Sequence record: PP175015.1
Source of the DNA: Escherichia phage UE-S5a
Length of the DNA stretch: 64,000 nucleotides
Strand: one strand, 5' to 3'
Below are positions 26,631 through 37,047 of this stretch, one piece after another. Position numbers and translations under genes: made by a program. The notes under the pieces were generated by a model. The model worked only from the letters and a program-made list of their open reading frames with translations. It did not search any database and was not told the DNA's origin. Numbering within the stretch: position 1 is the first letter of the stretch; the number at the start of each line of letters is the position of its first letter.

Positions 26631-26694
26631 TTACACTGGCTTACTGTAGAGTAAGCTTTCCATATACGATATAAGTTTGAACAGGAAACATGCT

Positions 26695-35600: not shown

Positions 35601-37047
35601 TAAAGCACTGGCTCGCGGTGAACGTGGTAATGAACCACTGCTGCCTGTATATGATGATAAAGGCAATGTGGTTGCTTATGAGCAATCTATTGACCCTAAC
35701 ATGCTGAAGCACATTGAGGGTGAGAACCATCTCGCTCGTGCAATCGGTGTATGGCGTGGTCGTCAGGTAGAGGAAGCTAAGGCTCAGCGTTTCAACGATA
35801 TGCTGATTGAGAACCTGCATAGCATGTATAAAAACGACATTAAAATGTCTGCCTCTAACAAGTCACAGTACGTTAACCTTCTTGGTTCTAAACTGGACCC
35901 AGTAACTGCTGATGCCCTTAAGCTGATGAACAGTGAAACTCGTCAGAAAGCAGAAAGTCTGTTTGGTCCTGGTGAGTTGTGGGTACGTCGTGACATGCTG
36001 AATGATGCACTGGGCTATCGTGCAGCTTCCGTAGGTGATGCCTGGTCTGGCAATTCTCGTTGGTCACCAGAAACACTGGATACCTTCAAGAAAGCTATGT
36101 TGGGTGTATTCGGCAACCGTGCTTATAAGTATGTAATGGGTGGTGAGAACCTGGTTCAAAACTTAGTTAAAGAAGCTAAGACTCTGATTGTAGTTAAATC
36201 AGTAGTTGTTCCTGCTGTTAACTTCCTGGCTAACCTTTACCAGATGGTTGGTCGTGGTGTACCTGTTAAGAACATTGCTAAGAGCATTCCACAGAAGACT
36301 GCTGAGATTAACCAGTACCTGAAATCTCGTCTGCGTCAGGTAGATGCAGAAGCAGAATTACGTGCAGCTACTAACCCGAACCAGATTCGTAAGCTTAAGG
36401 CTGAAATTCAGTCCATCACTGATAGTCATAAGCGTATGAGTATCTGGCCTCTGTTAGAAGCTGGTGAGTTTTCTTCAATTGCAGATGCTGGTATTGGACG
36501 AGATGACATCCTGATTACTGAAGGTAAACTTCACGAATACATGGATAAACTGGTTGATAAGTTACCTAAGTCTGTACGTAATGCTGGACGTTATGCCCTT
36601 ATCACCAAGGATACTGCTTTATTCCAGGGTATCCAGAAGACGGTTGAGTACTCTGACTTTATTGCTAAAGCAATCATCTATGATGATTTGACTCAGCGTA
36701 AAGGTAAGACTCGTGAAGAAGCACTTGGACGTGTAACGGAAGAGTTCATTAACTATGACCGTCTGCCTGGTCGCTTCCGTGGGTATATGGAAAGTGTTGG
36801 TCTTATGTGGTTCTATAACTTTAAGATTCGTTCTGCAAAAATTGCAGTATCCATGATTCGTAACAACCCGGTACACGCAGCTATGGCTATGTTGGCTCCA
36901 ACTCCTACCATGTTTGGTAATGTTGGTTTACCTATTCAGGACAACATCTTCAGTATTGCTGCACAAGGCAATCTCGGTTACTCCTGGGGCTTCGGTCAGG
37001 GACTTCGTGCCCATAACCTTAACCCTTGGCTCAATCTAGCTAACTAA
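26695..37047 (+). CDS. giant virion-encapsidated RNA polymerase (N4 vRNAP-like)
   Basis: Single uninterrupted ORF 26677..37047 (about 3450 aa); size and position match the N4 vRNAP; alternative start 26677; AGGAA RBS before ATG 26695. Confidence 0.8.
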   Translation: MSTFDRLAGFADSITNAKQVDVSTATSQKQAAQGQSPFQLTPENAYNLQTGRVGNLGIGAFEPGSLQADFTQASPLEILNKYGNEQGLQILNSRANAADAVRQDLSKQRTNAEAFGDTLSGVGLGVANTLGGIAALGTGLVNDNAGASIASGMDWLNEGVHNLQSDALNATRKVVQNQNQISAQKNQRLYEEDIKNGENDLVASLSRIGRDAFDSVANTLNNGMAATDGLSEGVGSLFTGGPLIRGVSALGKVMVGGDKAVKGITLAAELGSRPAQVALSAGRVAAPAIAIGGMEAGGAYQQTASEIMKMSHQELASKSPVYQQHIADGLSPDEARRQTASETGIIAAGLTAPVAAATGPLVSKFELNPLKVGSLAGAGSNMLRETVEEGIQSGTSQFAQNKAIQGNVDAKRDLLKGVGEQAGLGALYGFGSAGVAQAPGTTVKAVGASAGPALRTTLAGASLVGSALAKAASPITNILVQRGEEVAKRNEQASPVSDATVNAAAQEATAQAEQAQATVQEAVDAMDISPEDKAAATQYAADLTQAMKFDPVELEQANPAIREAVSGSTNRVEAIQKMADLVNTAEDPNVQMEAAIQMYDNIMSMDSFINRDPGALANLEQGSPAANIVDQFSGLMANVQNTPKVLRAFRAIHSMIQEQAEAGKLKATEEANQAQANNIAMAADMSPEVLDADSVNMVLKHASEGKITLGNRQRAALQSAAALLQGAREFDAKAEELGLRPQDIVSKQIKTDESRSNEGQYSALQHAKRIRSAYNSGNFDLASAYLDDFMKFAQHMQNKVGALNEHLISGNADKNKSVHYQALTPSREWVRSRTGLGVNPYDTKSVKFAQQVGLEAKTVADIANALATAYPELNVSHVKVTPLDSRLDKPAAQVVKEFRQGGLDATQSQQTNEPVNQVDETPAPAQETTTTVQPKAKPVVENKTVPVKEASSKAEEVSTTKSETVDATLTNEDTTQKVAETKTEMETVFPVYNNDKTPNQFLKSFTLPEEPKSRTIGSESPLTDIKQALSSTARFEAFTQKENNALTSDVIKRYQDLMGFGETLKTTLSDRLAKFLANKNVGKRFAEGTEANRWVGGKLLNIVEKDGDTFKFNDQLLETAVLAGLQWRLTATQNAAVKDMKDVAAITGVEASLLPEGILAEFENAQTLVEATNSLAQKIESYWGLNRNPNAPLGYTKGIPMAMATEILSSLIEMGEVKESMLDVSEIDPDSNKTVGLYTIEKLDDNDAINKFPTAIEEAVLVEPEEKMYFGDDIPSVAQTQLRNPAVKNTPEQKAALKAEQATEFRVHMPMVNFYEALGRDNILELMGAGTLNPELLNVNTAKSLEGKNLSVSMAYDSLFGVINQLQEQENGLDTPIHYGYNMTRVGRMQMLGKNNPQSSKLVREAILPTFSTIDLSNENSQTFSDFQLGLSQALGIKVHNMSREAMSEKLTKALEGNLKPAVDMMVEFDKSGHLPADAVDILKTSLGGDKSFVALMALMEYARYLNSDDRANFNTPLYVEADGVTNGPINAMVLMTGGKFTSDWIKNTAKGGLFFGKAGKTMNEHRSQDDSVDLYEASTNGLQQALNELRTTYRNNVPVMNQMNHLQKLMDLFIKDFNLNEDGTLDLKRGIAKNPLTITIYGSGARGIAGKMVSAITDTIYERFSDVLQARAADPSISPAMAMFGKEAASEADAQAMLDTFLTSMEALTGNVPVMRKGELSIQQVEGALTGKLDPQKFTVSGNALKNLQENMLHLFVEPMRTGIRNTVGEGLMHSTENLQKATQIQSLVLQDMFQQAVQAKLAEKEKDPTWKKGDFLTQKELNEIQESLSPLAPMIETGSQTFYIAGSENTDVANQVLATNLDDRMRVPMSIYAPSQAGVAGIPFMTIGTGDGMMMQTLSTMKGAPKNTLKIFDGMNIGIDNITDASRKANEAVYTSWQGNPIKNVYESFTKFMKNVDFSKLSDETKQAIAKSALEYDQREGATDDLLRVGAEQIERNLRNIALGVDIRHKVMNQVQTTVDQMAAVGAPYVNNGKISLEGLTVDQQVAKLNELFDAELNKRRDAVRAAKVEPVKEVPAMEQVGRVLKSGVRLLSNTAISKLAKEMSPEQQAVLKEVQKSLAAKDYKVVYGTPSQLDAYAIEKNITRPAPEDIEAAEAGNAYGWTNFEDKTIYLVTPSLETLVHELVHASTFESVLAHYEGTPNEAVQNIEDLMNQFRALDVKDESPAVREAYADALNTINGHLSNGFIEPAMAKAAALNEYMAWGLTNRELISKQKKTTALKTMVQAVYEAIKRLVFGRKKAPANADDMFSGLLFNSSVVMRGQAPTAAVAKDTTLFHNKTYGDNTRLEELGKTFDKLITDYIGSEPVQQVIRKGKFSDAVVNATKVTRDVQAHGFTMNMQEQRLFTNIVAALATEAAINPAALARAQEYYTHVTKNLTVESFMADPDSTNPADRYYAQQKFDTIMGANNIEFDSQGRSSLLPTFIGLAMVSEEVRKVLADIPVMKVDKKSGNTADAMLTNIGTAAMASLNARVAGDTKATNVQEGMDALAQTIMQTSLNAQSFYDSVATPTGNAIDRANQYLVDSIDVLSTRALEGAREVAANTKNPLVKGAAHAAQLIAAIATEKNGAIVAEGVMAAMNQGKVWQPFHDLVNDLTGRTKSNASVYDLIKAVRAQVQADRQQFREHLPTTIASKFSRKLTNDEWKAMHTGMGKTDLAVLRDTMSLGEIRDLLTDQKIVDREVNKLEADLQKQAGRNWPLISRKSKQLAQYMINGTVGNNLLRNATAISRMLGERQAARSTVDVAQLDKLITLYALEAMSKTDREMLSSLAQSEADGIDFATSYLVGQRKDEMAKAKSDMRATLNQYKGYIPGETKQGVNLIVAEDSQFADLIEKSYVRLGTYQGSSANRGPARSYYFAPVQAQAPFSQGILQNVRNTAGGVDLGTGFTMGTMVAGRITDKPSVDRITKALARGERGNEPLLPVYDDKGNVVAYEQSIDPNMLKHIEGENHLARAIGVWRGRQVEEAKAQRFNDMLIENLHSMYKNDIKMSASNKSQYVNLLGSKLDPVTADALKLMNSETRQKAESLFGPGELWVRRDMLNDALGYRAASVGDAWSGNSRWSPETLDTFKKAMLGVFGNRAYKYVMGGENLVQNLVKEAKTLIVVKSVVVPAVNFLANLYQMVGRGVPVKNIAKSIPQKTAEINQYLKSRLRQVDAEAELRAATNPNQIRKLKAEIQSITDSHKRMSIWPLLEAGEFSSIADAGIGRDDILITEGKLHEYMDKLVDKLPKSVRNAGRYALITKDTALFQGIQKTVEYSDFIAKAIIYDDLTQRKGKTREEALGRVTEEFINYDRLPGRFRGYMESVGLMWFYNFKIRSAKIAVSMIRNNPVHAAMAMLAPTPTMFGNVGLPIQDNIFSIAAQGNLGYSWGFGQGLRAHNLNPWLNLAN

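Follow-up and report, generated by a model that had tools for sequence, protein, structure and literature searches.

An intact virion RNA polymerase gene in Escherichia phage UE-S5a and the conserved terminator, hairpin and leader that precede it

The DNA analysed here is a stretch of 64,000 nucleotides from Escherichia phage UE-S5a (record PP175015.1; hereafter the window), and our subject is a gene of 10.4 kb within it, together with the short gap that precedes its start codon. This open reading frame (ORF) is, with near certainty, the intact gene for a virion RNA polymerase (vRNAP), i.e. a virion-encapsidated, injected single-subunit RNA polymerase orthologous to gp50 of phage N4, in a member of the genus Gamaleyavirus. 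We found no evidence against this identity. An earlier reading of the DNA letters (the original prediction) had taken the phage to be N4-like, and database comparison bears this out: window positions 26000-38000 are 100.0% identical over 12 kb to Escherichia phage UE-M3 (PP301342.1), whose taxonomy is Schitoviridae, Enquatrovirinae, Gamaleyavirus. The sequence here is indistinguishable from UE-M3, with no difference in the vRNAP region. The UE-M3 counterpart, the coding sequence (CDS) UEM3_026, is annotated ‘RNA polymerase’ in GenBank and has the same start, and the paper describing UE-M3 states that the phages encode a large virion-associated RNA polymerase (Virol J 2025, PMC11927229). A further 57 phage records each cover at least 80% of the query 26000-38000. 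Relatives of the polymerase domain occur in 369 phage records and, among the matches listed, most are annotated as virion RNA polymerase.

Because of the exact match to published UE-M3, the gene must be called real but ordinary, and previously described. It is already known, being deposited in GenBank and published, with its terminators annotated in relatives and with full-length structures available for N4 vRNAP (PMC13434306 and PMC13492108, published 2025-2026). Little turns on the finding, as vRNAP is the hallmark gene of Schitoviridae and the identical sequence has been deposited in GenBank and was published in 2025. Its use is as an annotation anchor, which fixes the phage family, the late-strand orientation and the boundary of the late versus the converging gene blocks. 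The loose end concerns how expression is set for a 10.4-kb gene whose product is required in just a few copies per virion.

The coding sequence is placed as follows.

26695-37047, plus strand: vRNAP coding sequence, 3450 aa, stop codon TAA at 37045-37047; from the ORF and from GenBank, PDB, Pfam and PHROG matches

One uninterrupted ORF runs along 26677-37047 of the plus strand (3456 codons counted from a TTG), and its translation contains no internal stop. Of the ORF as originally predicted, 26677-37047, the single intact frame stands, but the start was likely placed 18 nt too early. An in-frame ATG lies at 26695, six codons into the ORF. Most likely this ATG, and not the TTG at 26677, is the true start, giving a product of 3450 aa (26695-37044), because it follows AGGAAA (26683-26688) at a distance of 6 nt, the CDS of the identical phage UE-M3 in GenBank begins at the base equivalent to window 26695, and the N-terminus read from there, MSTFDRLAGFADS, matches that of N4 vRNAP, MSVFDRLAGFADS.

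Such a long ORF might be an assembly artefact that fuses several genes, or might encode a dead polymerase; the original prediction had named both an assembly fusion and a lack of catalytic motifs as grounds for doubt. The record of phage pSb-1 (KF620435) lends the first idea something, since it annotates the homologous region as three separate CDS. Against this, neither a stop nor a frameshift interrupts the frame, residues 1-3449 run collinear with the 3500-aa N4 protein of solved structure, and the same single ORF is present in dozens of independently sequenced phages; against a dead polymerase, all catalytic residues are intact on alignment with N4. We consider the probability of either to be negligible, as both are refuted by the uninterrupted translation, the full-length N4 collinearity and the intact motifs. 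As to pSb-1 (L005) itself, its consecutive CDS gp103, gp102 and gp101 probably reflect sequencing frameshifts or an annotation split.

Membership in the N4 gp50 family, whose members are single polypeptides of ~3,400-3,700 aa, is indicated by collinearity with N4 gp50 over the full length. In a phmmer comparison with the PDB chains of N4 vRNAP (11gp/9pnq, 3500 aa), query residues 1-3449 aligned with residues 1-3499 of 11gp_A (E = 0, 5023 bits). Query residues 997-2069 matched the mini-vRNAP crystal chains 2po4/3q0a. Pfam reports the domains N4_RNAP_helical, vRNAP_dom, vRNAP_dom_2 and vRNAP_plug (PF21894, PF21867, PF21769 and PF21624), and PHROG 2206 ‘virion RNA polymerase’ covers aa 25-3449 at E = 0. 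The domain limits below were transferred by alignment from the N4 limits in PMC13434306, using a MAFFT protein alignment with N4, G7C and PhAPEC5.

aa 1-901 (N4 1-906), 26695-29397, plus strand: N-terminal domain, in N4 the membrane-association / genome-injection domain
aa 902-982, 29398-29640, plus strand: linker 1, low-complexity and rich in T, E, V and K
aa 983-2070, 29641-32904, plus strand: polymerase (mini-vRNAP) domain, from PDB 2po4/3q0a, Pfam and the residue check
aa 2071-2082, 32905-32940, plus strand: linker 2
aa 2083-3450, 32941-37044, plus strand: C-terminal domain, aligned to N4 residues 2124-3500

Homology thus indicates that the protein follows the three-part plan of N4 vRNAP, with an N-terminal domain, a flexible linker, a T7-like polymerase domain and a C-terminal domain. 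The linker of N4 (907-1006) is described in PMC13434306, and the N4 C-terminal domain is both an encapsidation and an autoinhibitory domain (PMC13434306, PMC13492108). Against N4, the N-terminal domain is 59.5% identical, the polymerase domain 71% and the C-terminal domain 69%; overall identity is 67%. Alignment with N4 vRNAP, which the original prediction had proposed as a check, locates the central catalytic domain at aa 983-2070 with its motifs intact; the motif residues TRVGR, EADGVTNG, KRGIAKNPLTITIYG and KIFDG are all identical to N4, as are the contexts given here.

R1388 at 30856-30858: T/DxxGR motif, NMTRVGRMQ
D1523 at 31261-31263: motif A, YVEADGVTNG
K1634 at 31594-31596 and Y1642 at 31618-31620: motif B, LKRGIAKNPLTITIYG
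D1915 at 32437-32439: motif C, LKIFDGMNIG

The motif patterns, T/DxxGR, A (DGxxxG), B (RxxxKx7YG) and C (xFD), are those of T7 RNAP. We take the residues listed to be R424, D559, K670, Y678 and D951 in mini-vRNAP numbering (Kazmierczak et al. 2002). Also identical to N4 are all of the promoter-hairpin contact residues K114, R119, W129, D901 and R904 (mini-vRNAP numbering), whose roles are documented in PMC4496689 and PMC13492108. N4 vRNAP is a member of the T7-like family (PMC13492108). Compared with the T7-like single-subunit RNA polymerases, the enzyme described here is about four times larger, is delivered by the virion, and reads a DNA hairpin instead of a duplex promoter.

N4 gp50 (EF056009; PDB 2PO4, 3Q0A, 9PNQ and 11GP) shares with the vRNAP described here its domain plan, its catalytic and promoter-recognition residues and its gene neighbourhood. 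The protein here is 50 aa shorter than that of N4, with nearly all of the difference in linker 1, and among the relatives aligned, length differences fall almost entirely in that linker. The vRNAPs of the Gamaleyavirus phages G7C and PhAPEC5 show 90-97% amino-acid identity across the three domains. They are longer (3571 and 3748 aa) than the 3450 aa found here because extra modules that are not of low complexity are inserted in linker 1. These modules measure ~120 aa in PhAPEC5 and G7C, with a further ~125 aa in G7C, and are absent here and in N4; a Pfam scan of the PhAPEC5 and G7C linker 1 modules gave no match. Apparently, the linker of such an injected protein can accommodate insertions of this kind. 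Tandem Repeats Finder, run on the gene (26600-37100) here and in G7C, reported only trivial arrays of 12-15 nt, none of them in the linker.

Immediately upstream lies the following gene.

24636-26600, plus strand: homologue of N4 gp51 (66-kDa virion/ejection protein), 654 aa; UEM3_025 ‘structural protein’, PHROG 6126

It matches PHROG 6126 ‘virion structural protein’ at E = 0, and its position is syntenic with that of N4 gp51. Homologues of N4 gp53, gp52 and gp51 all lie upstream of the vRNAP gene on the same strand, and the vRNAP gene is the last of a gp52-gp51-gp50 ejection cassette on the late strand. In N4, gp50-gp52 form the ejection-protein cassette (PMC13434306).

By analogy with N4, a few copies of vRNAP would be packed per virion and ejected together with the DNA. 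The enzyme would transcribe the early genes, starting from DNA hairpin promoters that supercoiling extrudes at the first-entering end of the genome. The original prediction had proposed that early transcription uses an injected polymerase of this kind. Support comes from the UE-M3 record, which holds, outside the window, two RNAPII subunit genes (annotated at record 65908-68496) and, at its genome end, two hairpins of the N4 early-promoter type with loops of 3 nt.

UE-M3, outside the window: early-promoter hairpin 1, ACATGC-tcc-GCATGTtatgga (3' arm GCATGT), then tatgga
UE-M3, outside the window: early-promoter hairpin 2, AAGACGC-tcc-GCGTCTTatgga (3' arm GCGTCTT), then atgga

Their N4 counterparts are P1, GTTGC-ttc-GCAAC followed by ttatgga (sequence from PMC13434306), and P2, AAGAAGC-tcc-GCTTCTT followed by ttgga. 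PP301342.1 has cognate hairpin early promoters, with stems of 5-7 bp and 3-nt loops, at the first-entering genome end. Liquid chromatography–tandem mass spectrometry of UE phage particles lists ‘RNA polymerase’ (PMC11927229). The same list contains many non-structural proteins, which weighs against reading it as a sign of encapsidation, and particle proteomics is weak on this point for that reason.

The vRNAP gene is flanked by a terminator on each side.

26608-26632, plus strand: upstream intrinsic terminator after the gp51 homologue, AAAAGCCC-TTCG-GGGCTTTT (26608-26627), then TTCTT
37053-37085, both strands: two-way intrinsic terminator, AAAGCCCCTC-ATTA-GAGGGGCTTT (37053-37076), set between the late vRNAP gene and the minus-strand genes converging on it

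Each has a G+C-rich stem-loop followed by a U-run, on the plus strand for the upstream terminator and on both strands for the downstream one. For the upstream terminator, the predicted RNA folding free energy (dG) is -11.2 kcal/mol (z = -2.8), and none of 200 shuffled sequences folds as well. A consensus scan reports it on the minus strand only, because the stem rule of the scan absorbs the T-run; by eye it is a standard plus-strand terminator. The downstream terminator folds more stably, with a dG of -18.1 on the plus and -18.2 on the minus strand (z = -4.7 and -4.2), and the scan calls it on both strands, in agreement with the bidirectional terminator originally predicted at 37054-37084. Of its two T-runs, that of the minus strand (TTTTTCATTT) is the better one; the plus strand has TTTAATTTTT.

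The gap between the gp51 and gp50 genes was compared in N4; in G7C, PhAPEC5 and IME11; in ECBP1 and pSb-1; in Moo19; in four Kaypoctavirus-like contigs; and in three further IMG/VR lineages, the Achromobacter phages, Delftia RG-2014 and Erwinia Ea9-2. An intrinsic terminator directly follows the gp51 stop codon in every one of the ten lineages compared, so that the upstream terminator, which had been predicted at 26608-26630, is upheld by both fold and conservation. For the downstream two-way terminator, conservation was seen in N4, G7C and PhAPEC5. Both terminators are annotated in the PhAPEC5 record, and the downstream pair in the records of G7C and Ea9-2. Since relatives conserve both, ‘terminator-insulated’ describes the whole family and not this phage alone.

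Between the upstream terminator and the start codon lie three further features.

26639-26656, plus strand: inverted repeat GCTTACT-GTAG-AGTAAGC, 7-bp stem and 4-nt loop
26647-26652, plus strand: TAGAGT, the instance here of a TAnAGT core inside the hairpin; a candidate late-promoter -10 element
26668-26694, plus strand: leader block GATATAAGTTTG, then the ribosome-binding site AGGAAA (26683-26688)

The hairpin, reported originally as CTTACT-gtag-AGTAAG, is present and is one G-C pair longer than stated there. It has a dG of -10 kcal/mol as RNA (z = -3.6) and -5.7 as DNA. Perfect hairpins of at least 7 bp are not rare, the window holding 78 such entries (nested ones counted) against 33 ± 8 in shuffles, so any significance of this one comes only from its conservation in relatives. 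In all Enquatrovirinae a hairpin stands ~7-10 nt past the terminator and ~40 nt before the ATG, with the following arms.

This window: GCTTACT / AGTAAGC
G7C: as in the window, with the outer pair G.T
L016: ACTCACT / AGTGAGT
ECBP1 and pSb-1: ATTCACT / AGTGAAT
Moo19: CTCACT / AGTGAG
Kaypoctavirus: CACACT / AGTGTG
N4: ACACTA / TAGTGT

Two clean double substitutions are seen among these stems. One is a change from C-G to T-A between L016 and ECBP1/pSb-1, for which L038 shows a C.A intermediate; the other, from T-A to A-T, separates L016 and Moo19 from Kaypoctavirus and N4. In the lineage of the window, the 5' arm has shifted to a neighbouring segment and the 3' arm has changed G to A. In N4 the stem is a different one, with the loop GGTA, although the N4 gp50 locus shares both the terminator-hairpin-leader order upstream and the two-way terminator downstream. 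G7C and PhAPEC5 have a near-identical upstream terminator, hairpin and leader, differing by single bases in the loop of the terminator and in the outer pair of the hairpin. These compensatory changes were read by eye, as the MAFFT alignment (A4) leaves the 5' arms out of register; they are listed without a count of pairs because the loop is of 4 or 8 nt and the arm slides, so that a hand-fitted alignment would bias such a count. As DNA, the stems are weak (-3.5 to -5.7 kcal/mol, z -1.65 to -3.6).

Could the hairpin be a functionless chance inverted repeat, with selection acting only on the terminator, the ribosome-binding site and the leader block? The abundance of hairpins of this size in the window would fit, although the excess over shuffles consists mostly of terminators, as would the modest z in several relatives (-1.65 to -2.2), the small number of independent lineages sampled and a 5' arm that is not positionally homologous in all lineages. 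We nevertheless think chance an improbable explanation, as a hairpin of at least 5 bp occupies the same place in 9/11 lineages, built from at least five different stems and with the two clean double substitutions.

The letters T-A-n-A-G-T of the core are invariant on the plus strand in 12/12 aligned Enquatrovirinae sequences, where n takes all four bases (alignment A4). TAGAGT retains T-12 of the sigma-70 -10 hexamer as well as A-11 and T-7, the two critical positions. At the position of TAnAGT, the Achromobacter and Delftia phages have TGGTAAACT, TGGTAGACT or GGGTACACT; those of the Achromobacter phages, TGGTAAACT / TGGTAGACT, resemble an extended -10 (TGG-TAnACT), and two of these phages (L026 and L029) lack a stable hairpin. 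From N4 to Gamaleyavirus, neither the leader block GATATAAGTTTG nor the AGGAAAC ribosome-binding site varies, and the terminator-hairpin-leader layout as such is conserved across subfamilies of Schitoviridae. For N4, it is known that the late genes are transcribed by the host sigma-70 polymerase together with N4SSB (PMC4496689), and that N4 late promoters resemble sigma-70 promoters only remotely (PMC9163698). On this basis we tentatively favour, while stopping short of calling it probable, a role for TAnAGT as the -10 element in a late promoter that would be weak and dependent on an activator. It is plausible that the vRNAP gene has a separate promoter, the start of its own suggested originally.

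Several observations weigh against this candidate promoter. A consensus promoter scan reports no promoter here, which is because there is no -35 element. In the Gamaleyaviruses, a TG abuts the hexamer, so that for an extended -10 its register is off by one base, and the predicted transcription start falls on a pyrimidine. A -10 element also leaves the compensatory upkeep of the inverted repeat unexplained. When both window strands were searched for hairpins with a 3' arm AGT preceded by TAn, only the small hairpin itself was found on the late strand; as the motif occurs there just once, it is not a general late-promoter signature and does not form a repeated family. The N4 study in Nature Communications treats gp50-gp52 as one operon (PMC13434306), and a literature search, which did not take in Cho et al. 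1995, found no mapped late transcription starts or termination for N4, a Gamaleyavirus or any other Enquatrovirinae late region.

Two related searches of the window were likewise negative. A listing of the late-block intergenic gaps with their folds contained no second terminator-hairpin-leader layout, and the leader block GATATAAGTTTG, treated as a late-promoter signature with at most 2 mismatches, gave 4 hits against 7.8 expected, i.e. not above chance. One of these hits (3039) lies just before the small terminase gene, the first of the late block, where two near-copies of the leader block, GACATAACTTTG and GAGATAAGTATG, occur at 3039-3066 on the plus strand; a GGGGT-AACTC-ACCCC hairpin precedes them. 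A look-alike of the hairpin, CCCTCACT-TGTAATAA-AGTGAGGG, is found on the minus strand at 52431-52454, between a 686-aa ORF and the next minus-strand ORF. It has the CTCACT/AGTGAG arms and a TAAAGT core, as in the vRNAP-upstream hairpin of relatives, and the stretch after it, TTTGAAGAGGAA...CTATG, is similar to the vRNAP leader.

The pairing invites another explanation, in which the hairpin acts as an RNA stem-loop in the 5' leader of a vRNAP message that is read through from the gp51 terminator. Such a stem-loop might shield the 10.4-kb mRNA against degradation, provide a site for processing or be bound by a translational regulator. The compensatory changes that keep the pairing agree with this, as do the G.U pairs tolerated in G7C and PhAPEC5, which suit RNA better than DNA, and the folding energy of the stem, which is -10 kcal/mol for RNA but only -5.7 for DNA. 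Leaky terminators and read-through are, moreover, common in the N4-like phage LUZ7 (PMC9163698). However, the invariance of TAnAGT, which extends from the loop into the 3' arm, goes beyond what pairing needs, two Achromobacter phage lineages keep TGGTAGACT without a stable hairpin, and the stems are short and weak. An Rfam search of 26450-26850 at E ≤ 1 found no match to any family. We judge an RNA role to be unlikely on balance, but worth keeping in mind.

It is very improbable that the hairpin at 26639-26656 is instead an early-type DNA hairpin promoter for vRNAP itself. The enzyme recognises DNA hairpins of 5-7 bp, and the stem here is of 7 bp. The early promoters P1 and P2 of N4 and their UE-M3 counterparts have 3-nt loops (template strand GAA/GGA) and are followed by TATGGA, and vRNAP requires contacts to -11G, -10G and -8G of its promoter (PMC4496689). 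Here, the loop is of 4 nt (GTAG/CTAC; 8 nt in relatives), the required sequence is absent, and the hairpin sits in the late region on the late strand. The 3-nt loop, the central purine at -11 and the -10G/-8G of the template strand are thus all lacking at 26639-26656, and identity as a vRNAP early promoter is contradicted by both loop size and sequence.

Returning to the candidate late promoter, we propose that the signals around the vRNAP gene act as follows. First, the modest terminator after gp51 would let a part of late transcription enter the 10.4-kb gene. This terminator is probably leaky, judging from its stem, in which a 4-bp G-C core is extended by A-U pairs; a stem so modest, with a dG of about -11, would lower transcription into the gene without abolishing it. 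Partial read-through fits the need for fewer copies of vRNAP than of gp51 and gp52 per virion, as four molecules of vRNAP are present per virion (PMC4496689) and gp51 and gp52 are present in 12 copies each before ejection (PMC13434306). Second, the TAnAGT core, in an inverted repeat 7 nt past the terminator, would serve as the -10 of a weak late promoter that has no -35, used by the host sigma-70 RNA polymerase with an activator of the N4SSB type, and would give the vRNAP gene its own start. Third, the strong two-way terminator past the stop codon would isolate the late unit from the converging minus-strand genes.

A more far-reaching proposal, which we think unlikely although slightly less so than chance pairing, is that the conserved layout of terminator, TAnAGT hairpin and leader is a dedicated module that sets a low dose of vRNAP relative to gp51 and gp52. 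In one form, it could be a structured late promoter without a -35 that needs extrusion of the DNA hairpin or a hairpin-binding factor. If true, this would extend to the late class the habit of N4 of using DNA structure and a single-strand-binding protein in transcription. We found no earlier description of the conserved hairpin or its TAnAGT element, which is a minor regulatory detail.

Beyond the two-way terminator, the following minus-strand features converge on the vRNAP stop codon or lie further along.

37085-37612, minus strand: 175-aa protein converging on the vRNAP stop, with a Tad2-like (Thoeris anti-defence 2-like) domain, PF11195, at aa 94-175 (E = 3e-24)
37704-38096, minus strand: the next ORF, of the N4 gp49 / Sf6 gene 66 family, PF13876
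38531-38690, minus strand: tRNA-Ile(aat) called by ARAGORN, and next to it a tRNA-like gene for which the anticodon call, of 2 nt, is odd

For the tRNA genes in this region, the GenBank record lists tRNA-Ile, ‘tRNA-OTHER’ and, further along, tRNA-Cys. Finally, the window contains a perfect head-to-tail duplication of 148 bp (1372-1519 = 1520-1667), of which the otherwise 100%-identical PP301342.1 has a single copy, and window coordinates above 1519 equal the PP301342.1 record coordinate + 148. The duplication has a length that is not divisible by 3 and so breaks the minus-strand CDS UEM3_04 up into two ORFs, 1251-1514 and 1507-1719.

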